A stretch of 64,000 nucleotides of DNA, taken from positions 14,762,816 through 14,826,815 of the forward strand of contig OZ316895.1 in assembly GCA_973895155.1 (NCBI GenBank), read 5' to 3'. Below the pieces are notes generated by a model. That model was not told the DNA's origin. It did not search any database and saw only the letters and a program-made list of their open reading frames with translations. The position numbers and the translations under genes were made by a program. The number at the start of each line of letters is the position of its first letter. Position 1 is the first letter of the stretch. Of this stretch, positions 26,330-64,000 are shown in pieces. The stretch is from Marsupella aquatica (Eukaryota > Plantae > Marchantiophyta).

Positions 26330-27280
26330 TCATGAGCTTCAAAATTATTCTTTGCGCTGAATATTTCTTCTCGATGTAGTAAAGTAGACAAGAATCGTCT
26401 TAATCCTTTGCATTGAATATGTTTTCTAGCTTTACTAATTAAAGCCTGAAGTAAAGTAGATGAGAATCTTGCTAAAGAAGTGATCCAGATCTTGACCGAG
26501 GCAATGCATGATGCTCCTAGAATAATATCCTGAAAATTAGAAAGGGAAAAATCACGAAGGGCATTCAGTAAAGAGGACTGGCTACTAGAGAGACTGGAGG
26601 GAACCATCCCTGAGGCAAACTCTCTCCCTACCCAAGGTTAGTTTTTGGCAAAGCAAGAATTTTTGTCGAGAAGGGACAAGTGGCAATTCAAACATTATCC
26701 ATGGAAGAAAACTAGGCAGGTTTGAAATGGGCAGCGTAAGAAGTACAAGTGGGTGAAGGCACGGGCACCAGACCATATACATAAACCACGCTGCAAAAAA
26801 CAAAAGACGCCTAGACGAGAAACATAATCCCACAGAGTTGGTCAGAAAATGTGCACGAAAATGTGAAGTAATCCTTCCGAGGGGTCTCTAAACCTTACAT
26901 AAGTCTAGCCTTCAGTGACCCAGTTAATAATAAAGAAATTCAAGTATTGGTTGTTTTCGATGAATGGAACCCCAGTAATAGGAACCATATTTAGAAAAAG
27001 CATAGTAGATCCCCTCAATGTAGCCACGGCAGGAGGAATTTAATTCAAGACAGGGCAGGGAGGTATTGGATTCCCCATTTCCCCAAACTTGCATGCAATG
27101 TACATGAGGAGGCGGTGGCCCAGCTACGAAATGTCAGGGGGAGGAGAGTGACAGTTTTATGTTCAGGACCTGTGGAAGAGAATGGCAACTTCATGCCCTG
27201 ATGTATCCGGAAGGAGGGGTGACAAGAAATTTATGAACATCAAGCTATTAGAATCAAACTAAAACTAGAAATGTTGTGAT
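26330..27280 (-). pseudogene. Decayed LINE ORF2 C-terminal remnant
   Basis: Minus-strand fragments SWATASSCTLHASLGKWGIQYL and FQDIILG..KIWITSL resemble L1-clade post-RT regions. Fragmentary. Confidence 0.3.
26894..27004 (+). repeat. ~110-bp dispersed repeat, second copy at 54945-55057
   Basis: cttacataagt..agccttcag.gac.cagttaataataaa.aaatt.aagtattggttgtttt.ga..aatggaaccc(c)agtaataggaaccatatttagaaaaagcata occurs at both loci in the same orientation. Confidence 0.9.
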
Positions 27281-43300: not shown

Positions 43301-44874
43301 AGACAATTGCCCCCAAGGTGCACGGCGTTAGACCGCAAGCATGTCAGCTATATCATAATGTCAAAAACTGTCAAGTTCAACCAAACTCCGAATGCCGGTT
43401 AAATCACGGCTCCAACGGTGAGATTGCGTACTATTGGTACACACATTCTGCGAACGGAGTTGTTGCAATATGAACTGAAGACAAATTGATACGTACATTT
43501 ACGTGCACACATTCACCAAGTTCGTATGTTTGGTGGTCCACTTCAGCACGTGAGTAATGAGCGAGACATTCAGGCTCATCAACGTCACTGCGTACAGAAG
43601 TAAGGTGCATATCTCTCAAAGCTGCATTCGTAGTACTAGGCAGTTCTGACAACCCCTTTCCGGGAAAATCCTCAAAATGCAAGATCGAACATAGTACAAT
43701 TGGACCTCAATTATTCTCTTCTAAAGACCCTGGACCGGCGTATTGCTTCCAGAATGCATTGAAATAACAGAGGGCTGAGAATGCACTAAACTCAGAAATA
43801 TGCACCGAGTTGCAATGCCAATTTTCAGTTCCAAGGTTAACATGCATAGACATTTCAAATGGCCTCTATCGCTAAGGTTGGTACGTTCTGGATAACAAAA
43901 AAATAAGCAGACGCAGTCACTACTTTCTCATCGAAAATCGCACTACGAAGATAGAGGATGGGCAGGCACGTAGAACAAAACTTACTCATTGGAATTCTTC
44001 CTTTTGTGTAGAGTATCACCATTCAAAGTAGCCTGCTTTCAGAGAATCAAAGAACATACTTCAGGATGAGCCTTACCAATTTTGTCAACGAACAACACTA
44101 AGGAGGCCAAGAGAACCTACCAATGATATTACCTGACAGCAGAAGACGTGCAAAAGAGCAAAAGGCAATTACTGGAAGCTTTCTTCTAGCTAGAGCACGA
44201 AGTCATATGAAACCTGAATTAGCAAAACTAACAAGGGACGAAAAGCAAAACTGGAGTACAATCCGGAAAGTATGAGTTTACATGAGGTACCAGATAAGTA
44301 TATTAATTTTCTAAATTTGATTTATGGTCCATTGAAGAATTGGCAAACGAGCAAGAGTGAGCTCGAAAAGGTGAAAAAACCACCGCAATTCCCAAATTCT
44401 CTCCGTGAACTTAGAGTATCGATCAGAGCAGAGGAAGAATACCTTCGTGTTTGACTTCTTTGGATAGCGGTGAGGCCATCGGCGGATGGCTTCAGCTCTA
44501 GAGAATGGCTTTCCTAGTAAGCGGCAAGTCAAGGTGACGCGAGCATTTTTCGAGGGTGACGATGAAGGCTCCTTGTACGGAACCAAAGCACCCTTTCTGT
44601 TCCCCGCTTTCTCTCTTCTGCCAGAGCCTTCTTTCTCATGCTCATCACATTCTTCAAACGATCCTTCTTCCGCAGAGTTCTCGGAGACCACCTCCGAATC
44701 AGTTCTATCCGGTATAACATTCCTCAACGACTTGCCTCTGTAAGCAGAGGCCTTCTCCCGAACAACTTTCGGCTTCTTACTTGATCGAGAATTATTATTA
44801 GCGGAGGGAGAGTCCGACTTATCGTCGCTAGCTTCGACGGAGGACGATAGAGCTCTCTTCGATCTCGTTCCCAT
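37332..44874 (-). CDS. CMT: Chromomethylase (BAH, chromodomain and C5 DNA methyltransferase), multi-exon
   Basis: BAH region ([27 protein letters not shown]), motif [16 protein letters not shown], chromodomain YEVEKILG...[16 protein letters not shown], motif [13 protein letters not shown], motif VI MENVVD, motif [25 protein letters not shown] and motif [15 protein letters not shown] at 37332. An alternative in-frame ATG lies at 44886. Confidence 0.96.
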
Positions 44875-45117
44875 TATGGAGCACATAAAACTGCCCCCGA
44901 AAACGAGTAAGCCCCGCACGCCCTGTGAGAGCGAAAATACCGAGAGTAGCTCTGACCAGCATGTGTCACAATGTCACGCTGCCACACTGGCTGAACGCTG
45001 ACAAGAGACCAAAAGACGAGAATGGGACCAACCACCCTTTAGCAATGGAGCAACCATAAACCGAAGCAGCTCTAAAAAATTGCCCTCCGAAGGTCAATGT
45101 TCAAAACTGAGCTCGAC

Positions 45118-45288
45118 TATCGGATGGAAAGCTCCATTGAACAGCAACGAAAGACAATGTCTTCTGGTCTCTTGCCTGTTACAAGGTCACACGCCGCATT
45201 CCCGAGCGTCTATCAGATGGAAGGCTCCATAGAACACTGTCTTTTTGTCTCTTGCCTGTCACAATGTCACACGCCGCATTCCCGAGCG
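45118..45288. repeat. Diverged ~80-bp duplication in the CMT 5' region
   Basis: Two copies of tatc.gatggaa.gctccat.gaaca...tctcttgcctgt.acaa.gtcacacgccgcattcccgagcg. Confidence 0.85.
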
Positions 45289-45786
45289 AAGCGAGGGCCC
45301 TCGCTCACAAAATTGCTGTCTATCCGTCCGCAGAAAGAAATCGCACGGGACAGGGGAAGAAACCGGTCGAGATTCGTAAATTTTCCAAGCTGCTTGTTAG
45401 AGCACATGACACCCAAAACAGACTGTCTCTGACCGACACTACCCGCTAAGATTGCTCCGCGGAGCTTTCAACCAAATGCGTCAATCTGACCTCGTTAGGA
45501 ACGAATTGACGAATCAATCCAGCGCTCAAGCGGCTCAAACGAGAGAAGGAGATCGAGAGGTGAAGCTCATGCAGCACCAACAACACAACATCAGTGAAGC
45601 TGCTTCAACTCCGATTGCGCCCGCGCTGCATTTCTTGCTTCTGCTGCTGCTCCCCGTCGCAGCCTTCCTCTGTGGCCATGTGGCCAGACCTCTCTCGGAC
45701 CTCTCGCCGCTCTCGTTGCCCGCCCGCCCGCGCGCCTCCGGATGCTGCGCGACGCAGTGGGAATCGCGCGAGCGGGGAGCTCCACA

Positions 45787-45838
45787 GGGCCCAATTCGAT
45801 TCAAAACCAAACCATTTTCCCGCCTTGGAAAGGCCCAC
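45787..45838 (-). promoter_or_regulatory. Candidate CMT proximal promoter: E2F site, CHR-like TTTGAA and two site II motifs
   Basis: TTTCCCGCC at 45816-45824. On the minus strand GGCGGGAAAA is followed by TTTTGAAT (45799-45806). TGGGCC motifs lie at ~45789-45793 and ~45832-45837. Confidence 0.55.
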
Positions 45839-46163
45839 CCCACTACCGAGAACGTCGCCAGCTGATGAGCCCGATTCCATACAGGACAGTCATCGCAAAA
45901 CCAAAATTAAATAGTGGTGCTCGTGAGATTACAATCTACGATTGTGGTGCATTGCTGTACACTGCCCGCCCCAACATCCGTGCGTGTAATCAGTAACGCC
46001 TTCCAGGACGAATGACATTGTGTGCTGTAACGCCCCACACACCTAGGGCTTCAGCCCAAGTTTTTCGGGGCCATTACTGTCCTTTGTGATAGGGAGCTAA
46101 TCAGCTAATAAATAGCTAATAATGTATAGAGTAATGGTACTCCCATGGATCATTAGAGCAATA

Positions 46164-47860
46164 GAGCATCTCCAGGGGTTTGGAGTTAGCTCGCCGTTGT
46201 CCCCATCGTATAACGGAGAGTATGGCGGTTGCCAAAATAGCAAGTGCCAAGACCTTTGTGCGATTCCCAACGGTGACCCCCAATTCTGATCTCCACACTC
46301 TGACCACACGTATGAACTAGGCCCCATGCGTAATATGATGTTCAACGTGCAATAGAGAAGCCCGTCTGCGAGAGAGAAGTCAAGGCGGGAGTTGAAGTCC
46401 TGCTGAAGAACCAGATGCGCCAGCATACACATGTTGCAGCAGGCGCATCAATTTTTTGTGTTTTGTGTTGCATGTGTGCCTTAATATCAATGCAAGCTCA
46501 TTGAAGCGACCTTCAATCAGCTTGTGTGATTTGAATCGGAATAAAATTCAGTTTGACCACGAGTGTATTATATCTGTTCAATGGAGCAACTGTAAAGATG
46601 GTTGGCGGATCTTGATGAAGAATTCAAAGAGGAGGAGGCCGAATGGGATGAGGAACAAAGATTTTGGGAGTTGATGATGCTCAGTGGACCCCTTGCTGCT
46701 ACAAATTTGGCCAGGCACACCAGAAAAAGAAAGCACGGAGGGTCTAGGCCAGGCAGGAGTGAGAATGTGGAAAGGCGTAGAGAAAATGGGGCAGAAGACC
46801 TCTAGAATGATTATTTTTTGCTAGTCCAACCTATGACGAGTTGACATTTCAGAGGAGATTCAGAATGAGTAGCAGTTTGTTTAGCAAAATTCTTGTTGAT
46901 GTGTGTGCACATGACACTTACTTTTGCCTAAAGGTTGATGCTGCAGGGAAAGTAGGCTTGTCTCCACATCAAAAGTTGACTGCAGCATTGAGGCAATTAG
47001 CTTATGGAACTGGGGCGGATGGTTTGGACGAGTATTCTAGAATTGGTGAAAGCACAACATTGGAGTCTCTATATCGCTTTATGAAAGCCATCAGAGAGTT
47101 GTATGAGAGTCACTATTTGAGGAAGCCAATTGTTGGAGATTTCAGAATCACCTTCAAATTAATGTAGATAGAGGTTTTCCAGGTATGTTTGGCTCATTGG
47201 ATTGCATGCACTAGGCATGGAAGAATTGCCCTGTTGCTTGGCAAGGCCAATACACTAGCAAGGACAAGAATAAGTCCATCATCATGGAAGCCATTGATCA
47301 AGAATTGTGGATTTGGCATGTCTTTTTTGGACTGGCTGGGGAAACAAAGATCTCAACGTCCTTGACAGCTCACCACTTCTAAATGAATGGTTGTGTAATG
47401 ATTCAGCCAATGTCAGTTTCCATGTGAATGGTACAGAGTACAAACGAGCTTATCTTTTGGTTGATGGAATTCATCCTGAGTGGTCTATGTTCATATCCAC
47501 TGTGCACATGCCACAATCTGAGGAGTTGAAGCATTTTGCAAGGTGCCAAGAAGCAACAATGAAGGAGGTGGGGAGGGCTTTTGGCGTACTCCAAGCTAGA
47601 TTTGAGATAGTGAAGAGGCCTATACGGTCTTGGTATGAAAAACATTGTTAACATTTTGCTTGCATGTGTCATCCTTCACAATATGATTATTGAGGAAGAA
47701 ATGGATGATAATTTCCCTCCATATGTAAATGTTGGTGCTGCAAGAGTTAACAGAGTAAATCTGCCGTGGTTGGAGTTCCTTGCTCCAACAGCTGAAATTC
47801 ACAACAAGGCCAACCATTTTCGTCTAAGAAATGACATTGTTGACTACCTTTGGAGTTGAA
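46164..47860 (+). mobile_element. PIF/Harbinger transposon, left part
   Basis: Tourist/Harbinger-type terminus GAGCATCTCCA at 46164, followed by a transposase pseudogene. The right TIR was not found. Confidence 0.7.
46581..47859 (+). pseudogene. PIF/Harbinger (HARBI1/ALP1-like) DDE transposase pseudogene
   Basis: FQRRFRMSSSLF, DAAGKVGLSPHQKLTAALRQLAYG, GFPGMFGSLDCMH*AWKNCPVAWQGQY, DLNVLDSSPL, YLLVDGIHPEW, EVGRAFGVLQARF and ACVILHNMIIE, with TGG>TAG stops and frameshifts. Confidence 0.92.
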
Positions 47861-49178
47861 GAGGGTCTGGCCTTTCTGACCATTGATAGTCAAGTGAGTG
47901 TTCGAGTACCAAACTTGCAACTTGCGAGAAAAGTTTTGGTTTCTCAAATTTTAAGTACATTAAGAGCTGGTAGAAGACTTGTTTGAGTTGTTTGAGTTAC
48001 AGCAGTATTTCTTTGATTATGATCACCTCGTCAGAACACTTGGTCTTGTTTTCTGAAATTATGTTTTATTTTGAGACTGTGTTGCCTGGAAAGAACATGG
48101 CGGTGTAGTCGGGTCAAATAATGGAGGAGGGGAAGAAAGAAACCTTATTTTTGAGTTGAAGATGCTTGGTGGTGGTTTGTGTTTTAGAAGAGGTTTAAGT
48201 TGAAGAAGATACTGCAGTAAGACAAAAGAGGAATGAACAAATTTTGGCTACTTTAATTGTGGTGCGTCCCATGGCTCCCTAAACCCAAGAAACCCCCCAG
48301 CTCAAGCCGATTCCCGCAGGTTTCGTGCTTGGCGAGGCCGTTTCCGCGGCTTAGCGGCATGGGACGCTGCTAACCTTCTACTACTACTATTAACATTTTA
48401 CACACATATACTGGAAAGATCCTTCATCGGGTCATGAGATACGTAGCCGGCCTAATATAGGCCTTCCCCTGTCTTCCCCTGTCTTCCCCTCTGTCTTGTT
48501 AGGTATGTTTGGATTCCGCCGCCGGAATGATCCCCAATAGGCTTGGTTAAGCCGCTAAGACCTCTCTCAGCTCGACACATCCACCTCTCACTCCCCTGCT
48601 TACTTTCCTTCCTTCTGTTGATGTGGGCACTCTTCACACAAGTTAATGCGACACACAAATAGCAAAATAACTCATTCTGACTGAGTCATACCATGCACTT
48701 GCCATACAAACAGTACATCTCATACACAAGTTCTGCGAACTAAGCCGTGAGGCCAACTCTATTCAGCTCTTAGGCATGAGGAAACATGAATATACACAAG
48801 GGTCACTGTATGACTAACCGAGAGCTTCTCGTACTACTTGATCCCAGCCCGGCTGGTGCAAACTAAAAACTTGCTAAAGAAGAGGCCCTGAGCTCCCCGC
48901 TGCCCAGGTACTTATCCTGGTAGTGGATCCGCCATTCTTTGCATCGTAAACCTAATCTACCTGACAGTAATCTACTTGCCCGAATCTACCTATGTACAGC
49001 AAGGCAGGAGCACAAGTGTTGCTCCTACCAGTGGGACCGCAATCCCACTAAGCTAAGTGTCAGGGCCGCTCCTGGTTCTGATCCTAATCCTAAACGTGGA
49101 GATCCGCGCCCGCCCTGCCCACTCACGCCTCCTCCCTCCACGTCCGCCCTCCCTAAAAGGAACGGCGCCCTTGCACCG

Positions 49179-51170
49179 TCACGACACCGGTGGTGGATCC
49201 TTAATGGACGCCCCCAACGCTTCCTCCTCAGCCACTGCCGTAGGTTCATTCTCTGATAGATTACCTGCCCTTGACTGAGTCAACTCTCCATCGGCCTGAC
49301 TGGGTCCACCTTCGGCTTCAGCCTCGACACCGGCCTCGGCAATACCCACGGCTTCGGCCTCAGCCACTCCCACGGCTTCGGCTTCAGCCACTCCCTCGGC
49401 TTCGGCCTCCCCTTCCCCTAGGGTAGTTGGATCCTTAGCCGTGACCCTGTCTGGGGTCGGTGCTGGGTCTACCTCCTTGATCACCACGGCCTGTGAAGTC
49501 GTATTACTCCTTGACCCTGAAGGTTTCCGCTTCTTCTTCGTTGGTGGCTCGGCAGCTGGTCCCTTCCCCTTCCCACTTACTTCCGGCACTGGTGCAGGTG
49601 GCGCGGCTTGTCCTTCGACAATTACCACCCCTGGTAACTGGTTTGTCCCAACGGGAGATGGACCTGCTGCAGCTAAGCATTTAAATACTGCGGCTTGTTT
49701 CTTCAGCCGCTCTGTTTGGTTGTCGGCCCGCCGCTGTAGGTTCTCCATCTTCCTCGTGATTTCCTCCAACTCCTCTTGGGTTTCATCCAGGTCCTTACGT
49801 GCCCCCTCCAGCTCGTTTTTGGCCTCCTCCTGCTCCCTGTGGGCTTCCTCCAATTCCTTCTTCAAGGTAGCCCTCTCCTCCCGGGTTGCTCTTAGCTCCT
49901 TGTCGAGCTCTGCAATGATGACAGACTCCATCTGGTTCATCTTGGCGTAAGTCTGTTCGAGCATCTCGTCCTTCTCCCTTAGGTCGGCCTTGAAGTTGGC
50001 CGTCAGGGACGCAAGCTCCTGCTGCAGCGCCATAATCCCTTGATAGGATTTCCCTAACTCGACCTCCTGCTGCTCAAGGGCTCCGCGGATTTTCTCGAGC
50101 TCCCCTTTCAACGCCCATTCCTTTCTTTGGGTCTCCGCCATGGCCCGGCTGTTGGCTGTTATGTGGGCCTCCTCTGTATTCTTCAGCTCTTGCTTCCACT
50201 TCTCCCTCTCTTTGATCGTGTCGGCCAACTCTCCCTGCGTCTGAGTTAGTTTATCATTGATATTCTGATTATCAGCATGCGCGGTGTCCAACTGCCCCTG
50301 CATGATGTTCAGCTCATGTCGTTTAATCCGCAGTTCATCTTGGGCTTTCTTGGCCGCCCTTAGATCTTCAATCTCGGCTTCCATCCTCCTAAGCCGCCGA
50401 ATGACCTCGTCCTTCTTGCTTCTCTCTAAAGCCACCGCTTCTTCTAATTGGTGCTTCTCCAACTGCTCCCTATGGAAAAAGGGTCCTATCTCCAACTCCT
50501 CTCCAAAGATGCCGAGCGCAAGTTCCCCACACATCTCACCATACTCCATGGCTCTATTCTTAGCGTAGGTGGAGTAAGTAGAAGTGATCGGCATCGCCCA
50601 TCGTGGCCTCTGCTCCCAAGCCGTCCTGCGGATCTCTTCAATCGTGGCTAGAGGTTTGCTTCCTTTTTCGGCTAGCCGCCTGATGCCCTCCGACCAATCT
50701 CCTCCTGGTAAATCCTTTTCCTTAGCCAGGGCGGCCTCTTCCTCCTGCTTGATTCGCTCCTGAAATTCCTGCACCGTCTGTTTTATGCCGTCGAAGCTCG
50801 GGGGAGCAACATCTGGTGGGGGAGACTCAGGGCTACTCTGCTGGTTGGGGTCCCCTCGCACTACCCTTGGAAGTGTGGGGACAAACCGGCCACAGGTCCT
50901 TACTCCTGGAACGTGATGGTCCGACCCATAGCCGGAATTATCATGGCTGCAGTCCTCCATTGCCTCCTCTACCTCTTGGACGTCCGGCTTCTCCCTCTCC
51001 TCTTCGTCGGTAGGAGCTTCAGGCAATTCTGCCTCAGATTCGGAGCTTGAGGTTCCCACGTACATTCGAACACCTGGCTTGGATTCCGGCCTGATTCTCT
51101 CCTTGTCTCTAGCAAAGGGGTTTTCTCTTGTGAGCCGGTGTAGGCCTACCTCTGTAGTAGTGTCCTGCAT
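49179..51170 (-). CDS. Element ORF-B: long coiled-coil protein with NLS-like PPTKKKRK; in frame with ORF-A
   Basis: 663-aa open frame with an acidic N-terminus, a long E/K/Q/L-rich heptad region and EAEAVG repeats. Confidence 0.7.
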   Translation of the reverse strand: MQDTTTEVGLHRLTRENPFARDKERIRPESKPGVRMYVGTSSSESEAELPEAPTDEEEREKPDVQEVEEAMEDCSHDNSGYGSDHHVPGVRTCGRFVPTLPRVVRGDPNQQSSPESPPPDVAPPSFDGIKQTVQEFQERIKQEEEAALAKEKDLPGGDWSEGIRRLAEKGSKPLATIEEIRRTAWEQRPRWAMPITSTYSTYAKNRAMEYGEMCGELALGIFGEELEIGPFFHREQLEKHQLEEAVALERSKKDEVIRRLRRMEAEIEDLRAAKKAQDELRIKRHELNIMQGQLDTAHADNQNINDKLTQTQGELADTIKEREKWKQELKNTEEAHITANSRAMAETQRKEWALKGELEKIRGALEQQEVELGKSYQGIMALQQELASLTANFKADLREKDEMLEQTYAKMNQMESVIIAELDKELRATREERATLKKELEEAHREQEEAKNELEGARKDLDETQEELEEITRKMENLQRRADNQTERLKKQAAVFKCLAAAGPSPVGTNQLPGVVIVEGQAAPPAPVPEVSGKGKGPAAEPPTKKKRKPSGSRSNTTSQAVVIKEVDPAPTPDRVTAKDPTTLGEGEAEAEGVAEAEAVGVAEAEAVGIAEAGVEAEAEGGPSQADGELTQSRAGNLSENEPTAVAEEEALGASIKDPPPVS

Positions 51171-51200
51171 TGTTGCCGTTGCCGTTGTTGTTGCCGATGC

Positions 51201-52802
51201 CTATTTCTTTTCTTTCTCCAGTAGTTTCAGCAGACTCTGCATGCCTGGTTGCTGCATCGGCAAGTCTTCCTTCCTGGGCCTAAACACCTGCTCGATCGTA
51301 GGACTAACAGGTGGTTGAGGCTTCTCAGCCAACGGCCTCGGCATTGGAGCTTCCTCGGGTGCCCTTACCTGCAGGGGAAGTACCGGGGCAAAAGTCTGAC
51401 CTCTGGCATACCGGCACAAGAGCGGCATGTGATAGCCAAGCCGCGACACGCTCCCCATGCCGATTACCTGCTGCTCCTCCTTTAAGATCTTCTTCAATTG
51501 GTTGAGGAGGTACCCGTTGTAGTCCCGGCTTGGGTCTGGCCTTTCTGCCAGATAGACCTGTGCCTTGCCGATCTCTGCCCTCGGCAAGTTACAATGCATG
51601 GTCACCCGCAAGAAGTCGATCATCTCTCCTATGTGCGGGTTGGTGCAGGTGTTCCGGAAGAAGCCATTCTTCGTTGATGGCCCGGGGAACGACCGGAACT
51701 CCTTGTCAGGCAAGGTCTTCCTGGTATCAACTTTGGTCTTATTGCCTATCGGCAAGCCAAACACTTCGGCAATTACCTTGGGAGTAAGATAGAAATCCTT
51801 CCCATATATCCTCGTGCAATTGGTCTCGGGTTCCCATGACCCCACGAATTCTAATAGGTCTGACTCCGGTACCTCCGGCTTCAGCCATGGTAATCTTACA
51901 AAGGCCTCCAAGCCGGATCCGGCCATGAAGCCTTGGTACTTCTTGGTCTGCATGGCCGTAAAACATGCATCCTCCTCCCGTGCAAAATGTAGTTGCACCT
52001 CCACCGGTAGGGTTGCCGCCCAGCCCTTCCAGGTGTCATCCCTGGTTGGAATGGCCTTGATGGGATCGACCTCCTCCTCTTCGGCTTCTCCCTGCCTCCT
52101 GCTCTGCTGCTCGGCTGGCTTCTTTGGTGCCGCCGACCTCGTTCTTTTTGCCGGGGTGGCTTCATCGTTGACGGCTCCCTTCCTCTTCATCTCTGCTGTC
52201 GTGGAGGTTTCTCCTAGCACCGTTGCCTGGGTCCACCTTTCCGTGCTACCCTTTAATTCCCAGTGTATGTCGTTGCAGTTCTTGATGGCCTCTCGGATGC
52301 CGACGACGCTGTCTTTGCAAAACAGAAGATCGTCGAGTTGATTGGAAGTAGGCGTCCACAGGAACTCGTCCTTGATGAGTTCACCTCCTAAGAAAGCCGT
52401 CTTCTGCAGCTCCCACAATCGAGCGAGCTCCAGCCGTTCTCGAGCTGCCCTTTCTGATTCCTCGTCCTCGTAAGTCTTGATGTACTCAGTTGCCCGTTCG
52501 AATAGGCATCCCCAGAAATGTGCCGCTTGATTGACGTTGCTCATACCCTCCTTAGGTTGATCGTCGGTATCTACTCTCTCCCCGAGTGCTTGCCTAAGCA
52601 GCTGACAGTAGTTGGCCTCCCGTAGTCGTCTGCCTAGTTCGTGCTCGCAAATGAGCCACCATCTCCTGCAAGCGCTCCTTACCCCTCTCCTCTGCCGGTC
52701 CTTCTTCCCGTTGATCCTTCCTAGCCGCCGACGCTTAACGCGCCCTAACCCTAATCGGGTTTTCACCCTTAGCCTTACCTCCGGCCTCGGCCCGGGTTCC
52801 AT
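51201..52802 (-). CDS. Element ORF-A: basic N-terminus and PMD/Transposase_32-like domain
   Basis: Open frame of 533 aa from ATG 52802. GLEAFVRLPW...EFVGSWEPETNCTRIYGKDFYLTPKVIAEVFGLPIG resembles the plant mobile domain core (W.PET..F....E.TITLEDV..LLGLPI.G). Confidence 0.65.
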   Translation of the reverse strand: MEPGPRPEVRLRVKTRLGLGRVKRRRLGRINGKKDRQRRGVRSACRRWWLICEHELGRRLREANYCQLLRQALGERVDTDDQPKEGMSNVNQAAHFWGCLFERATEYIKTYEDEESERAARERLELARLWELQKTAFLGGELIKDEFLWTPTSNQLDDLLFCKDSVVGIREAIKNCNDIHWELKGSTERWTQATVLGETSTTAEMKRKGAVNDEATPAKRTRSAAPKKPAEQQSRRQGEAEEEEVDPIKAIPTRDDTWKGWAATLPVEVQLHFAREEDACFTAMQTKKYQGFMAGSGLEAFVRLPWLKPEVPESDLLEFVGSWEPETNCTRIYGKDFYLTPKVIAEVFGLPIGNKTKVDTRKTLPDKEFRSFPGPSTKNGFFRNTCTNPHIGEMIDFLRVTMHCNLPRAEIGKAQVYLAERPDPSRDYNGYLLNQLKKILKEEQQVIGMGSVSRLGYHMPLLCRYARGQTFAPVLPLQVRAPEEAPMPRPLAEKPQPPVSPTIEQVFRPRKEDLPMQQPGMQSLLKLLEKEKK

Positions 52803-55311
52803 GGTTGCCCCTAATTGTTTATATTTTCCTTGTTTTGTCACTATACTAAGGTGTTCCTAGGGTGCCTTCCTACTTTACCCACTTAACCGGCCGAGTGATT
52901 CTTGTCTAGGCATCACATTAATGCTTTTGTGGCGTGTTTTTCCTGTTTCAACATGTGGCAGACTGGAAGGATTCAAAATTCATAAGGACATGGTAGTTGA
53001 TTGTTAAAGAGAGAGGAGGTTAGAGGGAAGTTTGGAAACTCGGGGAAGGGCAATGAGGATTTTTTTGTGAAGGATCGACCAAGAGAGCTCCAAGGAGCAG
53101 AGGGCGATGATAGTGGGAGGAGACTTCAGACATAATGGATGGAAAGACCTGGAGGTTCCTAGTGGTTGGAAAAAGCTTGATGGGGATTTGAGAAAAAAGG
53201 ATCACGAGTTCGTCATTGTATCATTGGAGGAGATCTGAGGAGAAAAAAAGTGTTTGGGGGCAGAGAGGATTGGAGCGCTAAGGAGGATTGGATCAAGTGC
53301 TGGAAAATGGAGGAGTGATGGTGCTTGGCAGAGAGAGGTCAAGTGCTTGGCAAAGAGAGGTTGAGTGCTTCAAAGGAGAAAAACAATTGTTAATGAAAGG
53401 ACTGGGGAGGCCATGGGGACGCTGCGTGGCTGTTTGAGTGCGAGGAGGGAGACAGAGTTCTTTGTGCTGTTGTTGAGAGTGTGATGGAGGCGTTTGGAAG
53501 AAAAGTAGTAAAAATGCAATGGATGAGGACTGATTGCAAGGAAAAAAAGGCAAAGGCGGATTTTGAATGCTCATGTTTTATTCAGATTTGAGGTGCTATG
53601 GAGTTGATTTTCTTCATGAGAAAGAGCAAGAAGAGGGAAAACGACAAGCGATGAATGCAAAAAAATCTTTGGCTGAACAAGAAGAAAACAGAATTGCGCT
53701 ACAAGGAGTGTAGAGAATTTTTGGGAAGTAGATCATGTGTTAAGGAGCAGAGCTAGGGTGATCAGGACTTTGTGGAATTTTTTCACAGGAGAAAGGTGAG
53801 GGAAACTACATTCCAGAAGATGGAGGAGGATTAATGACTTCTCCATTGAATTGATTGAATTTACCTTGGAACTGGGTAAGAGTAGAGATCGAGTGATCAA
53901 GTCTCAGTAGTAAAGAACGAATGCTTTTAAGTGTGTATGGAGTGTTGCGTTGCACTGTGCTGCATTGTGTTGAAATGAGAATGTGGAGAGTTTTCTTTTG
54001 TGTGAAACAAGAGTGACCAGAGAGCAAGAGAACATAAGCTATTGAGATAACAGAAAGAAGAGTTGAATGTGCTACAAATGTGAAGACTGGGAGGTTTATG
54101 GACAAGAGGCAAACAGAAGAATGAATGGGATAAGAAGAGTTGAATCAAACAGATAAATGTCCGTTGCACTGTAGGGAGCAAACAAAATGTTTTTTTAAAG
54201 ATTTTGGAATGAGCTCGCGAATTGAGGCCTTTGATAGAGAGTTTGCATACTAACACTATTGACTCTGGAGTTATTCAACTCGAGAAGAGAGGTGAATGAA
54301 AACAAGCATTGTTCATGTTTTATAGTTTCGACTAAGGGATAGAAAGTAGAGTTAAAACATGGAGCTCTGTTTTGGAGAAAGGATGGATGGTGAAGGTGAA
54401 ATTGGACGAAGGTTTTTTCTGTTATGGGATTGGAGGATCGAGAAGAGGAGGAAGGAAGGGCCAGCAGAGGAAGAGGCTCGGGAAGAGAAAAAGAGAAGTG
54501 ACGTGAAAAGGGAAGCTTGCCACCGACTGAAGTTTTGCAGCGATTGTCAAGGAAAGACAATAGACAACTAGAACCTGACCTAAAGACCTGACCTGACCTG
54601 ACCTGAGTGATCCGAGACCCTAGCTGAAGAATGGACGACAAAAGAGTGCCTATTTGAGTTGACTTCAAAAAATGTTGTAAACCTGAAAAAACCCGAAAAG
54701 GTTATATGTATAAAGAGTGTTTAAAAGTTTAAACGTATCAAGTTGATTTTTGTTTGTGAATGAAATACTTAGCCTTTCAAAATTGATTTATTTCTGAGTG
54801 ATGAGAGGTCCATAGGGCTGAAAGCAAACAAATGTTAATAATACAAAACAAAGAGTCGAATTAGTTAAGAGCATGTGTGATGTTGAACTTTAAAGAAAGC
54901 ATGAAGATAAGAAAAATTTAGAGCTTGGTTAGAGGTTGTTTGCTCTTACATAAGTATATAGCCTTCAGAGACTCAGTTAATAATAAATAAATTAAAGTAT
55001 TGGTTGTTTTTGACAAATGGAACCCAGTAATAGGAACCATATTTAGAAAAAAGCATATTGGGACATATCACATGAAAAATGTTAGAAACTACGAGTGAAA
55101 TAATAAGTTTTTTAATTGAGAAGAGTTAAGGAGTCCCTAGAATTCTTTCCGAAACCTATGTTTCACACCACTCTTAAATGGTCCTTGGAAAGCAGAGGTG
55201 AGTGGAATAGCGCAGGCCGATGAGTGACACCGCAGAATGATTGAAGGAGCAATTACGTAGGTTGAAGAACAGTGGAGCTCTAAAGAGTCAGATATTCTTT
55301 ACGTCAATAAC

Positions 55312-56915
55312 TTGAGTGTTGGTGACAATGTGGAAGTAGATAGCATTGACATGTCCACTGTTTTTGATGAGGTATCTAGAGACAGTGTTGCTATTAACCG
55401 TTGTGACACTCTGGTCAACAGTAATCTTGATGTCATTTCTGCTAGTAAGACATTAGACGGAAGGGCAACTGCGGTCAGTATGCAAAGGCTACGAGCACTC
55501 CCCGACCCTGGCTTAGTAGATGCAGGGAAGGGGCAAGAGAGACTGCCATTGGAGAACAATGACAGGTGGGCCTTGAAACGCGCTAATGATTTGAGGAGAG
55601 GGTTAGGTTGGGACATGTCAATAGCACTAGGAGACCTGTCATTGAGGCAACTTGACGAGTTATTGAGTGTACTAATTAATCAGTTTTTGAGAGTTGTTAA
55701 GGTGGATGAGACCCTTTACCCCTCATCTACGCTTATGAATATGTGTAATGGCTTCAACCATATTATTAGAAGGGCTAGTGACATCAGGCCTTTGAACAAA
55801 GAGACAATCTGGTTGACCGTGACTTCAACATAAACTCGCATCCAACATTTGCAAAAATGCATGGTCATCACAGCTGCAATCAAGAAAAGTGCAAAGGAAG
55901 GGGTGAATAAGAAAAGATTGAAAGTAAGTGTCACTCACTTGGTCCATGAGCCTTTCTTGAGATCATTTTGTTTGTGTACAATGAAGTGCAAATCTATGTA
56001 ATCTGTATAAGCAGGATAGTACTACGGATTCTCTACCTATATGTTTACAATACCAGAGCGCTTGTTGGCATTAGGCAGTAGTTATTGAGAAATGAAAGTT
56101 ATGACCCTTTTTGTTACATGTTACAATCAGAAATATTGACTGAGGAACATGAGAGCAGTTTTGGCTTATATCGATCATCAGGTCACGTCAAGCCATGGAT
56201 GCCAAAAGCATTTGGCATTTGTTTTTCTTGCGAGACTTGGTATCCGTGGCAAAATGGAACTATGGAACTTGCACAAAGACAACATCACTGTATGCATGGA
56301 CAAGTTAGGGAGGGCGTACGTCAAGTGAGTTCTCAATCCATGATGTATTCACTTTGATAAGTTGTAGCTTGTTGGAGTTTCTTTAAATTGTAGTTTCTTT
56401 CTTTATTTGCTTGGTGTTTTTGTGGCAGATTTGAGGAGTGGTTGAGTAAAAACAACAATTACACTAGGGATTGCTACAGATAGCAGTTAAGAAATGTTTT
56501 CCATAGTTTCAAAGAAGATTTTGTGATGACTGTGAAATAGTGTAAGCACAATTTTCCATCTATTGAGAAGGCAAAAAAACCAGATTTGTTTATGCAAACT
56601 ATAACTAACCCTGCTCGCATTGTGTGGTACAATAAGATTCAGAAAGTTGGGAAGGGTGTTGGAGGAGGTTGGCTGAAGAATATGGCCTTACTGGTTGGAC
56701 AGCCCCCTGAAATTTTCACTAATCGGAGTGGGAGGGCAACATTGGTGACATGCATGGCTGCCAAGGGAGTCCCTAACAAGGTAGGAATGGCCATTACTGG
56801 TCATCGGAGTACTAGAGGTTACAAGAGGTATGACCAAACTCAAACACTGAAAATGGAGGATGTTGCATTAGTATCTGCAAATCTGAAGTTAGCTTATGAA
56901 ATAAGCACTCGCTCA
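55312..56915 (+). pseudogene. Crypton-like (DUF3504-type) tyrosine recombinase pseudogene with two spliceosomal introns
   Basis: Across frames: NDRWALK...LDELLS..FLRVVKVDETLYPSSTL, ILTEEHE, LGIRGKMELWNL (catalytic R), FEEWLSKNN (K), WYNK..KVGK and FTNRSGRATLVT...GVP....ITGHRS..GYKRY. GT-AG introns at ~55924-56130 and ~56325-56428. Confidence 0.8.
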
Positions 56916-57250
56916 CACTAGTAGAAACCGGGGCATTTTGTGACCAGACCACTTGTGACTGGGGTGACCACGCAAGTGCAACCTTTGAACATCAGTCTTA
57001 TTTTTGAGACCCCACAAGACTTGATAGTCATTAGTAGTCATGTATATGACTACTTAAGACAATTGAACTTTTTAAAAATCTTGCTCTATTGAATGAGTCA
57101 TTCAGGTCTGACTACATAGTCATACTTAGTCAACATAAGACAATGGCCAATAGTAAGCCAAGTCCAATTTAGTCAACAAAATTGACTTGTCCATTCATTT
57201 TCATTGTGGCCATTGAACACTTTTTAAAATAATGTAGTGCCATATGCCTG
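56916..57250 (+). mobile_element. CACTA element terminus inserted at the 3' end of the recombinase frame
   Basis: CACTAGTAGAAA at 56916 supplies the TAG that ends the YR frame. GTCA/TGAC-rich subterminal repeats follow. The other end was not seen. Confidence 0.65.
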
Positions 57251-59402
57251 GTTAAAGGATATTTACCCGATCCCATACACATTCTGAGCCATGGGATTAT
57301 GCTTTACATAGCCATTGACTGAACTATATGCAAGGGGCATAAGGGTTTGCTAGGGAGGCTTTTTTTGGGTTTTGTGTTACATGAAGTGCAGTTTAGGCCT
57401 AGCTAACTCATCCACATGCATGTAACCCTTCCTGCCAGAGTTTAGGGGGGGTTGTAGCAAGACACCTAAAGGGGGTTTTAGGGGGGTTTTACCAAGACAC
57501 CTAAAGGGGGTTTAGGGGGGTTATATGACATGGGTGTGGGGGTTATATCGATCTCAAGGGGGAGGGGGTTAATCGGGGGACACGCACCATTGGATGGAGT
57601 TGATCGCCACCATCAGGTGAAACTTTTCCGTTCTCGCGTCCCGTTTAGTCGCACGTCCCGTTTAGTCACACATGTCTGAGCTTCGTTCGATCGGGAGATG
57701 GGAGAAGGTGCAGACACCAAGGCGGAAGTGCATCCTTGCGGCTGGCTAGGGTGCGCATTTCCTTCACTTTCCCTCATAAAACTACGAGCTCATTGTGGTG
57801 GTGTGGGTCCCGTATGTAACTTCTCCCATTGCCAACCTTCCATCACTGCGTGCTGGACACATTTGAGTCCTTGGGCTGCAAGTAGAGCGCATTCACAGTT
57901 GTGCCAAGGGAGGTGATCACTACTGCTGCGGAAGGAGGGAGTTAGTCGGGAGTTTTGCTACTACTGCGGAAGGCACTGCACAAGCTTTACTAATGCGGGA
58001 CCTGTGTGGGAGGCGTAAAGACTTAGGGTGAAGTCTAGTGCAACTATCCTTCTCTTCCAAGCGTATTGTGAGCTCGAACAACGTCGCGGGATTCCTGAGG
58101 TGAAGAGTGCAAGCTGCGACCAGTCTCAGGAGCAGCTCCTCAATCATCCCGGGCATTGGAGCTTAGTGAACTGTAAGTGCGTGCATACCCTTCCAGCTGC
58201 GTCTTTGACTAAGGAGCTCATCAATCTTCTTGGGCATTGGAGTTGAAGTGTCACTTGCCTATCCAACGATTAATATGTGCAAACCGTACTTTTCTTCGCT
58301 CAAACCGTTGGTATCGTATTACGGGGTCGTGGAGGGACGCTATTTGGAGGATTTCCACACCTAAGGATGAGTATGTTTGATTCCGCTCCCGGAAGTGTAC
58401 TTTTTGATCAAGTCTACCGACTGGTCTCTCCGTTTTTGATCAAGTCCAAGGGACTGGTCCTACCATCTACAACTCATGCCCACCGGGTGAGTGCTGTCAC
58501 CACCCCCTCTCATGGGCAAGCATACAAACGTTTACAATAATGTTTGAACACTAGTGACAAGGCAAATGTTTCCACAATGAAACCGACCACATGCACTAGG
58601 GGAGGAAAACAAACAACACAAGCAACAACAAGTGACACACAAAATATTGGAACCTCAAGCCAAATCCATATCTCTTGGTGTTTCCCGTAACACATGCAAG
58701 GGCAACCTGGCCTCCTGCCGTCTGCCCAACTCCTGCCTCCCGGGGACAAGTGCTACGTTCTCCACCTCACTACTCTGGCTTGAATTTCTCCTAATCGGTG
58801 CGCTACAAAAGCTACTCAACAACATCAAAGCACTACGTTGAGTTCCCCCCCCCCTCACTACTTCGGGGCTCTCCCCTTAAATACCGAAAAAACCACACCA
58901 AAGCACCCCTCATGGGGTCACAACGATGGCGGCTACCCTAGCGGCGCCGCTAAAACCCTGCACTAAGAAATCCCTAAACTAAAAAGGCATGCGGCACACA
59001 CATGCTGCTAAAACCCTAAACCCTAAACAAGGGGCCGACGGTGCCTTCGACGGCGCCCCAATTGTACTCCGTGAACCCTGAAATTGCAAGGCACCCCACA
59101 ATGGCTGAAACTAGGTGCCCTATCAACTGTACTTTTGAGCTCATCCTTGGATAGCCCTTCTCCTCCTGATCCCGAATCACTCAGCCGCACTCGCAACGGA
59201 CATCGGACGCCTGAGTTATGGTCGTTTCCGTATCGCGAAAACACAATTTCGTCGGGCCATAACTTGCTCATCCTGGCTCCGTTTGAGGAGCGCCGCCTCT
59301 TGTTGGAATCAGCTCCGTGAGCTCTTTCCAACAAGCCCGTGAGTGACCCCTCACAAAAAAGTTGGAAATCCAGAGGCCGTACAACCACATCCGTACGACT
59401 AT

Positions 59403-61257
59403 CTACTCCTCCTCTTCTTCACTCTCGGTGCCCTGGCTTGTGCCCCGTGAGTGGGCCTCCTCTTCATCACTCACGGGAGTGAGTGCCACCTCACTTTTCT
59501 TCTTCTTTACCGGGGTACTCTTCGTGTTGCCGCTCCCTTGCTTCCTCAAAGTGGCCAAGGCCTGCCACGCCTTGATGTACCCCTCACCAATGGTGTCCTT
59601 CCATAGGGTAGCCTCTTCTCCGGACCGCAACTCCAACGGTAGAACTTGCCCTGTGGCCATGGGAGTCCCGGGGGTGACAGACCTGGGTGGCATCCCCGTA
59701 CTGACCTGAGCCTCCCGTAACGATTTCCGTACCTCCCGGAGCTTATTCTCCAAGCCCTTGCTCTTCTCCTGACTCTTCTTGGCTCCATCCAACAAGGGTC
59801 CATACTTCCCACTAACCTCCTTCACCACCATCTCAATAGCCTAGGAGATCAAATCCGGGGAAAGTGTGGAGCTAGGTGTGCTGGGGTTCTTCCGTTTCCC
59901 CCAGGCTCAAGGCCTCACTCCTCTTTGCTCGTGTCTCAAAGGCGGCCACCTGACTCCGTAGTGCTCCCACCTGGTTTCTCCACTCCACCACTTCTCCAGA
60001 ATTCTACTTCTCTTTGGCCAATGCTTGTCTCAACGCTCCCACCTCTTCTGCTTCCTTGGCCTTGGTGGACAAGGCTCCCTTCAAGTTGGAGATCTCTACG
60101 TGAGCTGCTTGGAGAAGCTTAACCTTCTCATGAATGGTCCCCTCCTTGGCCTTGATCACCTCCTTCAGAGACAGGGTACTCTGCTCTAACGTCTCTACTC
60201 TGGCTGAGGCGTGCTTGAGAGAATCTCTCAATGCATGGATTAGCTTGAGTCCCTCATGGACTCCCTCTCTGAAATCCCGTAGCTCTGCCAGGTAAACATC
60301 CGGAATGTTGTAGACCAGGGGCTTTTTCGGATCTCCTACGAGTGATTCAAGCCACTCCAACGTGTAGTCCTCATCCTGGTTTTCTTCTTCTCTATCTTCA
60401 TCCCCACCAGCCGACGATGATTCCTCCGTGAGCTTCCCTATAACAGTAGTGGCAATACTCCGGATCTCCATGGTGAGAGATGATCCCGTGTCTTCCTGTC
60501 CTGGGGAACCAATCAACCCTTCTGCCCTGGCCAATACAAATGACCCCATCAAATGTATAGCCCCACCTGGTTTCACACTCCCGGGATCAGCGGCCAACAG
60601 CTTCTTCAACCCGTAGTACCACCATCCGTACACATGGGCTGGGTGGTTCTTGATGTCCATAGCTACCACGAAATGCTCTTCACTCACCACCTCGGATTGC
60701 ACGTTGCCAAGGACCCGTTGATGAACCTTGGCCAGGAATCCCTTATCCTCAACATCCTTGATAGCGGAAAGAGGGATGGCAATGGTGGAGGTGGGATTAA
60801 TCACCCAAGTGGCCACCATCTTCAACGTGAGTTCTCCCCTAATGTGCCGAGGTGTGAATGAGAATTTCTGATTCCCCAAAAACAACAGCCTAGCCAACTC
60901 CACATGGGGCACTACACGTTTGAGACATTCAAAGTAGATTCCCTCCGTTCGTAACTCCATCCCGGCCTCAATGTCCCAGCTCTTCCCCGGAGGGATGGTA
61001 ATCTCCACCTTCATGAATTCTGTAACCCCGGTGGCTTGGAAAATATTCCGACAATCCTCCATCACTTTGGCGGAGGTCTTGGGATAAATTCGACGAAAAA
61101 TCCTCCTACCCACCGGTGTGGAACCTGCTGCCAATCCCGTGCTCATCGTAGCTTCTCTCTCTTCTCTCTCCCTTGCAATCAAAGTCTCCACGTAGTCACG
61201 GTAAGCAGCCTTGTATCTCCGAATGCGTGCCACACTAAACTCCGATTGATCTAGCAT
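59403..61257 (-). pseudogene. Decayed element ORF (417-aa intact part at 60004-61257, continuing through frameshifts to 59403)
   Basis: After ...ALAKEK the coiled coil continues in other frames (ILEKVVEWRNQVGALRSQV; LIS*AIEMVVKEVSGK...PVKKKK). Confidence 0.6.
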
Positions 61258-61639
61258 TCATGCATCCTGAAATCAAATTCTCAATCACCAAATCCCGTCA
61301 CCCGTAGCAATGTCAATTCCCTGGCCCGAAACAGCCCCCGTAGCCCGATTAATTTATTTCTCTCAATCCCCTCTGTCGTCACTCCATGTTGCTGTCGTTA
61401 ATGCCCGGACAGTCCCCGCAATCCCCCATGAGTGAGCCTTGAGAAGAATTGGAGAGAAAGCTCAAATAATTGTAACATAAGGAGAAAGCTTTCGGCAATA
61501 AGGGAGAGAAACTCGAGTTTGCTTTCGGCAAGAGAAGGGTCGTGTGAAAAGGAGAAAAGAGGGGAGAGAAAAAAACAATGAAAACCCCCCCGGGAGCAGC
61601 TTTTCGCCTTGCGCCCCGGAGCCCTCCTTTGTCCCGACT

Positions 61640-61985
61640 CGCGGGAGTCCCCCTTCCTCGCAGCTCGCGCCTCGCACCTCGCGCCTCGCACCTCGCCCCT
61701 CACAGCTCGCAGCTCGCGGCTCGCGGCTCACTCGCGGATGCTTCCCCTTCCTCGCACGGCAGCTCGCGCCTCGCAGCTCGCGGCTCGTGGCCCGCAGCTC
61801 GCCCCTCACAGCTCACGGCTCGCGGCTCACTCGCGGACGCTTCCCCTTCCTCGCGCGGCAGCTCGCAGCAGCTCGCGGCTCACTCGCGGACGCTTCCCCT
61901 TCCTCGCACGGTAGCTCGCGGACCTCCTTAGGAGGGATTTATTTTAAAACCCCCCCATACTCCTCACTCGTGGCAGCTCGCAGCA
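61640..61985. repeat. GC-rich tandem repeat array
   Basis: Repeated cttccccttcctcgc.cggcagctcgc and ggctcactcgcgga units built from CTCGC motifs. Confidence 0.9.
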
Positions 61986-62689
61986 GCTCCTTGCAATCGG
62001 ATGTTGAATGTGAAGACAAGTCTGATTGTTGACACTGTACTGAATGCTAAGCCTCCTCTAAATCAATTCTGAGACGGGACTGAATGTTGAGATTGATGTT
62101 AGGTTTGCCTGTGGTCGGAACACTCTGCGAAACATTTCAATATATATGCATCCGAGTTCCCAATAAGTAATAACAGCCATCGTTGTCTAAAGTGGGCCTC
62201 TGGTAGTATTGTGCATCGGGGGCACTCAATAGGAAACTCATAGTTGCTTTTACCAACAACAGAAGCTGCATTTTTGAAGAAATTCCATGGACTTCATTGC
62301 TTGCGCAGTTTGTGACATAAAATGTCCAATTAGATGTCGGAATGAAGACATGATCTCTAACTGTCTTGCACTGTATGTCCTTTGAACTGCATTCTTAGAT
62401 AGCCCAAATAGTGGAATTCCAAGTGGGACAGTTCACAATCCACAGAGTTGAACCCATTCTGAAATAGAATATAATTCTGAAATAAAATATTTTCATTCAG
62501 AGAGTCATAAAGTCAAAACTAGTTCATTTTAACTTTGGCCACTGTCTAGCATGAAAGTCTGTAATGCATATACATATTCGATACCTTCATGTTTGTTTCA
62601 TGCATACATTCTTGGCAGTGACTGATGTATTCAACCTGGAATGTAATATTTTGGCTTCGATTGGCTCCTCTATTTTGCTAGCTTCTCAA

Positions 62690-63210
62690 TGTCTGCTCAT
62701 AACATTTTTTGAGAACATAGGTATAGACAGAACAGAGTAATTGGGAATTCAGATCATATTGTTGTATGCTTTGTTGGGGATCCTCTTGTGTATGTGCAGG
62801 CATACACATTCTACCTGAGGGCAGTATGCCTGTACACCTCAAGTAGAACCAAGTACGATCTGTCGCTTGATATAATTCCACTACACTTCTATATTAATGT
62901 TGCCTAAGTGCTTTATTGTTTTTTTTTGGTTGAAATGATGTTACTTGCATTTCATAGTCAATCTTAGTTGGTTGGCTTGGTACTCATTTGCTTCACTCCC
63001 TGGGGCTAGTGAATTTGTTTGCTGTCACTGAGTTTCTTGCGTAAGAACTACATGTTGTTTATTTTCTCGATCCATGCTCTGTTTTGCTCTCTTTCCTCTG
63101 TTTTGCTGGCTTCTTCATGTCTGCTCATAACATTTTTCAGATTGTGTAGTTATGGATAGAACATAGTAATTGGGATCATACTGTCTTCTGCTCTGTTGGG
63201 GATCCTCTTT
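62690..63210. repeat. Diverged ~100-bp direct duplication in TE-like DNA
   Basis: 62690-62790 resembles 63118-63210 (tgtctgctcataacattttt...agtaattggga...tgttggggatcctctt). Both encode EDPQQS..QYD..KCYEQT on the minus strand. Confidence 0.8.
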
Positions 63211-64000
63211 GAATATATACTTGGTCACATGTATTGAGCTTGGAGGCAGTTTTTTCATTCCCATCTTCATTTTGTCAAGTGACCTTTCTGCCACCCGCCT
63301 CTTTTTTAGGAAGCTCCTTATTGTGTACACAATCTGTACTTTGGTTATGAAGTTTGACTGAGTGCTGCGGGCCACTTCCTGTGCCGACCTGTGCTGTAAT
63401 TTGCTTTGTTTTGCATCCACTGTTTAGTTTCCTTCTATTTTATCGACGAGTTTCATGCATATCATGTTTATAAGAGCTTTTGTGCTGATGCACAATATAG
63501 TTGTGCCAACTGAATGCCAGTCTGCCTACACTCCTACTCAGTCACTCTTGCAAGCAGTGAACTACCTCTCTGTTGCTCACTACAGGCAGAGACTTTCAGT
63601 GTTTCTGGATATTGTACGTAGTTTGCAACATTGTTGATTAGGAGTGTTTCATGCTAAGTTTATACTATGACCTCTAGTTGGAATCAAGGGAATGACACAG
63701 TGAGTGGGAACTGATAAGTTCAGGTTGGTTGTTGTTGGTGAGGCAAGTACAGCTCCTGCTCACCTTGCTGATCAAAGGACGTCAGAGGACGTGAACACAA
63801 GACATCTGAACAAAAGCAACAGTTATGGTGAGCACCCGCAATGCTGAACATGTGCGGCTTGCACGCAAGGCAGAGAGGTTGTGCCTTGAGTATGTGAGAC
63901 TTGGGATCCTTCCTGCCCAGTCTGCATGGTACTTTGAGTACCCTATTGTTGCCAGGAATAACTACAGTCGGCCTGTACCTGCTTCTCTACCCTTCCCAAC

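Follow-up and report, generated by a model that had tools for sequence, protein, structure and literature searches.

A decayed tyrosine-recombinase (YR) gene is confirmed on the plus strand in the region 55312-56915 of the window, by which we mean the whole stretch of 64,000 nucleotides of Marsupella aquatica DNA that was analysed. In the three forward frames of 55000-57100 the catalytic motifs GIRG, SKNN, TNRSGRAT, TGHRS and KRY, which a sequence-only reading of this DNA had listed, are all found in order. P0099, a protein of 711 amino acids from Calypogeia fissa, aligns to 55291-56900 as three collinear plus-strand blocks with 43-54% identity (E 3e-43 and 9e-58), namely residues 117-344 at 55291-55950 (43%), residues 345-401 at 56152-56325 (47%) and residues 401-559 at 56427-56900 (54%). 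The gaps between these blocks are two predicted introns, and the locus is laid out as follows.

54412..55236, plus strand: candidate left end and 5' non-coding part, about 0.8 kb (contig loose ends and a rise in depth; exact boundary inferred)
55237..55923, plus strand: exon 1, acidic N-terminal region and core-binding (helical DNA-binding) domain (homology to P0099 and P0102)
55924..56130, plus strand: predicted intron 1 (GTAAGT donor, decayed or ambiguous acceptor, gap in protein homology)
56130..56324, plus strand: exon 2, start of the catalytic domain with Arg-I, and a frameshift near 56153 (homology to P0099)
56245, plus strand: codon of Arg-I (GIRG)
56325..56428, plus strand: predicted intron 2 (GTGAGT..CAG, phase 2, T-rich)
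56429..56915, plus strand: exon 3, with Lys-beta, Arg at the His-II place, Arg-II, His-III and Tyr, truncated at its 3' side (homology to P0099)
56448, plus strand: codon of Lys-beta (SKNN)
56724, plus strand: codon of Arg in the usual His-II place (TNRSGRAT)
56733, plus strand: codon of Arg-II (TNRSGRAT)
56802, plus strand: codon of His-III (TGHRS)
56829, plus strand: codon of Tyr (KRY)
56916..57950, no strand assigned: separate repeat starting CACTAGTAGAAA, which interrupts the gene (contig loose ends; far end not found)

The core-binding-like region that had been proposed upstream of the motifs is borne out by exon 1, which besides its alignment to P0099 matches P0102 with 49% identity over 168 amino acids (E 2e-55). 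Its start codon is uncertain: shortly downstream of an ATG at 55237 there is a stop, possibly a premature one, at 55258, and the homology of the gene begins at least as far upstream as 55291, somewhat before the 55312 that had been given as its start. The two GT-AG introns proposed earlier fared differently. Removal of intron 2 joins the exons in frame, and the claim stands there. For intron 1 the donor is most likely 55924 (GTAAGT), with a weaker donor possible at 55928, and splicing to the 3' end near 56126-56130 does not restore the frame cleanly; of the relatives called as open reading frames (ORFs), P0101 ends and P0100 begins at this place. Four other ORF-called relatives (P0003, P0006, P0014 and P0105) begin just before the residue at which intron 2 lies and four (P0011, P0013, P0016 and P0018) continue through the site, so intron 2 appears to be common to part of the family.

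When the last exon is read through its two stops, a HMMER search of 1.84 billion proteins returns 93 hits at E<=0.001 (best 1.5e-41), 17 of them at 1e-10 and four at 1e-30. Other searches gave little: none of five window pieces matches a Pfam family at a meaningful E-value, the last exon or last ORF has a weak match to a PHROG integrase (E 0.0028), none of 123 candidates from a word-index search with the last ORF was retained, neither the last ORF nor profile A5 found a hit in sequence searches of the PDB, and there is no Rfam match in 53000-58500.

The window copy is dead, as its frameshifts, stops, CpG loss and the insertion at 56916 attest. The frameshifts noticed in the sequence-only reading number three, at about 55800 and 55858 in exon 1 and 56153 in exon 2, to which in-frame premature stops at 56481 and 56538 in exon 3 can now be added. 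The observed/expected ratio of CpG is 0.21-0.67 in the exons (0.21 in exon 3) against 0.83 and 0.89 in two host exons. The inserted repeat is presumably CACTA/EnSpm-like, a label that we take from its terminal motif. Position 56915, previously taken as the end of the gene, is where this other repeat cuts it: similarity to P0099 stops at about 56900 although P0099 runs on for about 150 residues, no part of that C-terminal tail is found elsewhere in the window, and the insertion would have taken the last 150 or so codons from view. The repeat is regarded as a separate unit because assembled contigs of two sequencing runs, six each in X3 and X4, begin at this position and differ in their flanks (agreement 0.46-0.47); no inverted end matching it is found in the window (at most four mismatches in 18 bases). 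In three of four runs a contig joint, 47187-56916, links the 56916 end to Harbinger-type sequence. A second YR copy near 47000, which this joint had suggested, was rejected, the region at 46400-47850 on the plus strand being a broken PIF/Harbinger-type transposase (Pfam Plant_tran, E 3e-32) that is moderately repeated in the runs.

The four runs, from two studies, contain 76-98% of the words of the stretch; no conclusions are drawn from runs X5 and X6 (share 0.06; 5 and 14 pieces) or from X7, which is thin over the element. Contigs of the four runs cover the locus with zero or one difference and cross both of its flanks (in X1, for instance, 52873-54847 and 56168-56969), so the locus is not an assembly chimera. 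The window also carries plant-type genes, namely a laccase, an acyltransferase, an LRR protein and a methyltransferase piece, and the best solved relatives of the laccase and the methyltransferase piece are maize laccase and the chromomethylase ZMET2. That the DNA is from a land plant is well supported, and its nearest relatives suggest a bryophyte; the earlier concern that the contig might be non-plant or chimeric is not borne out. The methyltransferase piece (40828-42129, minus strand) consists of exons of a chromomethylase-like DNA methyltransferase with a chromodomain-like stretch and motif I (best PDB matches E 2.5e-5), and adjoins the transposon cluster.

The outline of the element on its 5' side comes from the same contigs. 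Many diverged contigs pile on 54412-56915 (80% likeness), three contigs, all of run X4, have loose ends before 54412 with unlike flanks (agreement 0.61), and the summed depth, which serves to place repeated parts and not as a copy number, rises in the bin 54349-54505. Between 54412 and 55236 the longest stop-free stretch is 52 codons on the plus and 96 on the minus strand. In both X3 and X4 a single contig runs directly from 54689 into 56497, an internally deleted copy that lacks 54690-56496 (1807 bases); this junction ties the upstream DNA to exon 3. What emerges is a dispersed multi-copy family with a non-autonomous deletion derivative, the deletion form occurring in two of four runs and further, near-identical copies in a fern. 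The candidate left end at 54412 has no inverted repeat partner in 44000-64000, and neither an empty site nor a circle junction of the element is among the joints listed for the runs. A TATGG found 11 bases inward from the candidate end is similar to the terminus of CryptonS (PMC3212892), but it is off the boundary and may be chance. A simple pattern scan of all six frames of the window finds no reverse transcriptase (RT) or RNase H motif, in keeping with the sequence-only reading, and with the left end inferred at 54412 there would be no room for a reverse transcriptase upstream of the gene.

Several other repeats share this part of the window. A 114-base piece of the 5' region of the element (54945-55057) recurs at 26894-27004, 28 kb away, with 89% identity; X3 and X4 contigs skip 54909-55025, and the piece around 54945-55057 may be a small insert of its own. 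A very high-copy element at 48253-52917, with a summed depth thousands of times the single-copy level, has two long minus-strand ORFs (551 and 673 amino acids) without a clear Pfam family, in which no transposase or RT was recognised; an X7 contig that joins 48252 to 52918 represents its empty-site form. A second high-copy element at 58000-61600 has a 417 amino acid minus-strand ORF without a Pfam match, and GC-rich tandem repeats lie at 61646-61920.

The kind of recombinase can be judged from P0099, itself a gene model that lacks one residue seen in relatives and may not be fully intact. Its AlphaFold model has a mean pLDDT of 62.9, mostly above 80 in residues 212-575, with a long acidic N-terminal extension and a low-confidence C-terminal one. 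In Foldseek both domains match Cre (best E 3.6e-6), and in VIA Cre is again first (Z 18.3, rmsd 4.2, 299 residues aligned), followed by XerA, an integron integrase and XerH. In the ESM Atlas the three best clusters for P0099 have DUF3504 in 49-74% of their members (score 0.98 by features), the best structural match is a DUF3504 cluster (TM 0.80 over 338 residues), and an ALOG/integrase cluster of DIRS-like retroposons comes seventh, close behind at 0.97; P0009 gives the same picture. The PF12012 (DUF3504) search proposed from the sequence-only reading came out negative, neither P0099 nor any window piece matching that family. Among relatives with Lys or Arg in place of the usual His-II (hereafter K/R-type), the best DUF3504 matches, 27.4 bits for P0055 and 24 bits for P0013, lie below the curated cut-off of 29.7, so standard Pfam-based annotation misses these proteins. 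Profile comparison by hhalign of 11 K/R-type with 12 His-type proteins gives a probability of 99.6 (E 1.7e-23), and ten of the 12 His-type profile proteins match DUF3504 at E<0.001. Collectively the Atlas clusters, hhalign and the sub-threshold Pfam scores of relatives support a recombinase of DUF3504 type, as predicted from sequence and modelled structure. The GCR1_C domain, a mark of CryptonF, is absent from all 68 proteins scanned with Pfam (P0099 included), and DUF3435, that of the Starship captain, is found in no K/R-type protein and at E 0.014-0.017 in two His-type ones.

These rankings bear on the possibility that the gene is the YR of a DIRS- or Ngaro-like retrotransposon whose gag and RT parts have been lost or lie outside the fragment, which we consider very improbable. 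Spliceosomal introns fit a DNA element. The ALOG/integrase cluster does score 0.96-0.97 in the Atlas, but the DUF3504 clusters rank above it, the ALOG structure matches the N-terminal domain only (Z 6.1), and no conserved Zn-ribbon insert can be seen in the alignment; the idea of an ALOG donor was also set aside as unsupported. Plant ALOG domains are described as derived from DIRS-like elements (PMC3537659) and the 3' part of the present element is not visible, but the element of that paper has gag and RT/RNase H before its YR, whereas here the candidate left end and the gene are separated by about 0.8 kb of non-coding DNA.

The replacement of His by Arg at 56724, already recorded in the sequence-only reading, stands, and its meaning changes in the light of the relatives. 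The 84 of 93 hits that cover the His-II column (nine do not) have Lys in 51 cases, His in 19, Arg in nine and another residue in five, giving Lys or Arg in 60 of 84, and the Arg of the window copy is common to its Calypogeia relatives. Among the 65 non-His hits the remaining catalytic residues are retained, counting the hits that cover each position: Arg-I in 10 of 12, Lys-beta in 22 of 22, Arg-II in 56 of 65, His-III in 57 of 57 and Tyr in 51 of 54. A maximum-likelihood tree of 46 of the 60 aligned rows, with four integrases and ten long or gappy rows left out, places 35 non-His rows on one side of a branch with support 100/98 and the window protein in a group of nine with two Calypogeia proteins (100/100). 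The K/R branch was retained with a support of 90, unstarred, when four prokaryote-type integrases were added, and a first quick tree of all 60 rows had its root inside the K/R rows, with a long-branch warning; all of these trees include the motif column, and their references are unlabelled His-type hits and the four prokaryote-type integrases, with no named CryptonA, F, I or S, DIRS or Ngaro element. Because Lys or Arg stands in 60 of 84 hits and the non-His rows form one branch, the change from His to Arg is a feature of the lineage, in which Lys is usual, and not a sign of decay. Type IB topoisomerases have Lys at the His-II place and His at the next (PMC2747268), and by analogy the enzyme probably still worked with Lys or Arg there. 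The strict R-H-R-Y tetrad occurs neither in the window copy nor in its lineage, and for that reason the element is filed as a CryptonA-related variant and not as CryptonA proper. Two divergent non-His recombinases, P0088 and P0065, with Thr and Lys at His-II respectively, lie on ENA contigs of 279 kb and 101 kb, whose hosts could show the reach of the lineage beyond land plants.

The replacement of His-II throughout the lineage could instead be taken as lost catalysis, the locus then being a pseudogene of a domesticated host gene family, a plant counterpart of ZMYM, QRICH1 or KCTD1 that binds DNA and does not transpose. We rate this as slightly less probable again than a retrotransposon origin. 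Introns common to relatives would suit it, and DUF3504 genes have been domesticated several times in animals (PMC3212892), but the domesticated proteins lack most catalytic positions (PMC3212892), whereas the other five are kept here; the copies are many, dispersed, near-identical in the fern and often damaged, an internally deleted derivative exists, and the locus sits amid transposon debris. Nor is the gene a single-copy host gene or, on its 5' side, part of an RT-linked arrangement, the two outcomes that the sequence-only reading had named as telling against a Crypton.

As for where Crypton-type elements of this kind occur, the 30 hits that were looked up include six organism-named K/R-type proteins, two from Calypogeia fissa, three from Adiantum capillus-veneris and one from A. 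nelumboides. Three further K/R-type proteins of Calypogeia lie outside those 30, and every organism-named K/R-type protein, the six and the three, is from a liverwort or a fern. The only named chlorophyte hit, P0080 of Gonium pectorale, is His-type and distant and joins the His rows on a long branch. The three A. capillus-veneris gene models are 95-97% identical outside gaps and lie on chromosome-sized records of 161, 159 and 150 Mb. Five Calypogeia models lie on records of five different lengths. In the 46-row tree Calypogeia has at least two deep subfamilies, and two Calypogeia models share about 89% identity when gaps are set aside, with two conserved segments skipped in one of them. The copies in the fern and in Calypogeia have, on sequence, the pattern of a dispersed, recently copied and decaying element. 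One A. capillus-veneris gene model, P0052, joins PPR repeats to the recombinase, probably through insertion in or beside a PPR gene and not through fusion. Searches further afield, with P0105 in metagenome contigs (none of 97 stretches confirmed), with P0099 in viral contigs (none of three) and with alignment A5, brought no genomic loci of plant relatives, which does not imply absence. The 60 loci found with A5 reach E 3e-6 at best, and of the 18 translated 16 are prokaryote-type integrases and two an unrelated frame.

Foreign DNA is the least probable of the alternatives, be it contamination from a fungus, an animal or an alga, or a horizontal transfer of recent date, as might have come from mycorrhizal Glomeromycota with their Glomhoppers. 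The closest relatives to have been characterised are DUF3504 elements of animals and fungi (PMC13465315), but contigs of two studies cover the locus with zero or one difference across both flanks, the neighbours are plant-type genes, the organism-named K/R-type proteins are all from liverworts or ferns and the K/R rows form one branch apart from the His rows. An ancient transfer into early land plants would still be allowed; presence in liverworts and ferns with several deep subfamilies favours, on sequence comparison, an old residence in land plants.

The locus is best explained as a broken YR gene, predicted to have two introns, that was probably the sole gene of a DNA transposon of Crypton type whose lineage occurs in liverworts and ferns, and we put the probability of this at about 0.85. 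The earlier proposal of a Crypton/DUF3504-type relic in a land plant is thus upheld by collinearity with P0099, the Cre-like fold of the model, the Atlas clusters and hhalign. From sequence and models we read the lineage as CryptonA-related DNA transposons of non-seed plants with a putative topoisomerase-IB-like active site. The whole protein, of about 700 amino acids in the nearest relative, would bind the element ends through its helical core-binding domain and cleave single strands in turn by way of a 3'-phosphotyrosine link; strand exchange in the manner of Cre would then release the element and insert it at a short target in another place. This scheme is deduced from the protein fold and from the Crypton model in the literature, in which a short terminal motif recombines with a like target (PMC3212892), and movement of a Crypton has been observed for CryptonF-1_cRei in Chlamydomonas (PMC9977147). 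A wider reading, to which we would give a little less than even odds, is that the elements are an ancient Crypton-type clade of non-seed land plants in its own right, one that would date back to the ancestor shared by liverworts and ferns, would have an active site like that of topoisomerase IB, with Lys/Arg for His-II, and would have been mobile recently in Adiantum and Calypogeia. They would then be the first class of YR transposons in land plants, and might be a native source both of site-specific recombinases and of chromosome rearrangements.

The literature gives some measure of what such a lineage would add. Cryptons come from fungi, animals and stramenopiles only in the list of Kojima and Jurka (PMC3212892), and DUF3504 is placed in Opisthokonta by the Glomhopper paper (PMC13465315), in the supplement of which six plant names gave no match. 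The available text of a 2022 review of land-plant transposons does not mention Crypton and excludes DIRS from land plants (PMC9033089). A 2015 compilation has Crypton in one of 80 land-plant data sets, by column count that of Coffea canephora, with no description in the portion available (PMC4438587), and a review of plant genomes mentions Crypton, in general terms, as a subclass (PMC11630846). The accessible parts of PMC10288648, PMC12130899, PMC8371274 and two preprints hold nothing further on plant Cryptons. No paper describing a Crypton from a bryophyte or a fern came up in the literature search; plant entries may exist in Repbase, in Dfam, in subscription journals or in preprint supplements. 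With a lineage of YR transposons in liverworts and ferns, the plant inventory would gain a transposition mechanism. The window copy itself is only a truncated fossil, and the lineage-wide use of Lys or Arg for His-II is a direct biochemical question, which the seemingly whole copies of Calypogeia and Adiantum make testable.

Compared with known systems, the element is set apart from the DIRS, Ngaro and ALOG-type elements in having no gag or RT/RNase H upstream of its YR, given the candidate left end, and from the domesticated DUF3504 genes (ZMYM, QRICH1, KCTD1 and KIAA1958) in being broken and multi-copy with five of six catalytic positions canonical. With Cre it has the two-domain fold in common, at about 12-16% sequence identity. 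Its resemblance to topoisomerase IB lies in the pentad R-K-K/R-R-H plus Tyr (PMC2747268), a likeness in sequence that does not extend to the topoisomerase N-terminal domains. CryptonF-1_cRei of Chlamydomonas reinhardtii is likewise a Crypton of the green lineage and has a short terminal motif that recombines with a like target (PMC9977147), but its host is a chlorophyte alga and it belongs to the CryptonF group, in which GCR1_C occurs (PMC3212892). The Glomhoppers, a CryptonA subfamily of Glomeromycota, share the DUF3504-type YR, copies with and without introns and ill-defined ends; compared by their published description, they differ in being fungal and in keeping the catalytic His and Tyr (PMC13465315). 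Ends in the Crypton superfamily have no terminal inverted repeats and either direct repeats of 4-6 bp or none. The element differs from the CryptonA elements of animals (Kojima and Jurka 2011, PMC3212892) in its land-plant host, in Lys/Arg for His-II, in a branch separate from the His-type rows, in scores below the Pfam DUF3504 cut-off and in its long acidic N-terminal and low-confidence C-terminal extensions. It resembles them in a YR gene with a core-binding and a catalytic domain, in a DUF3504-type sequence pattern and predicted structure without GCR1_C, and in having deletion derivatives.
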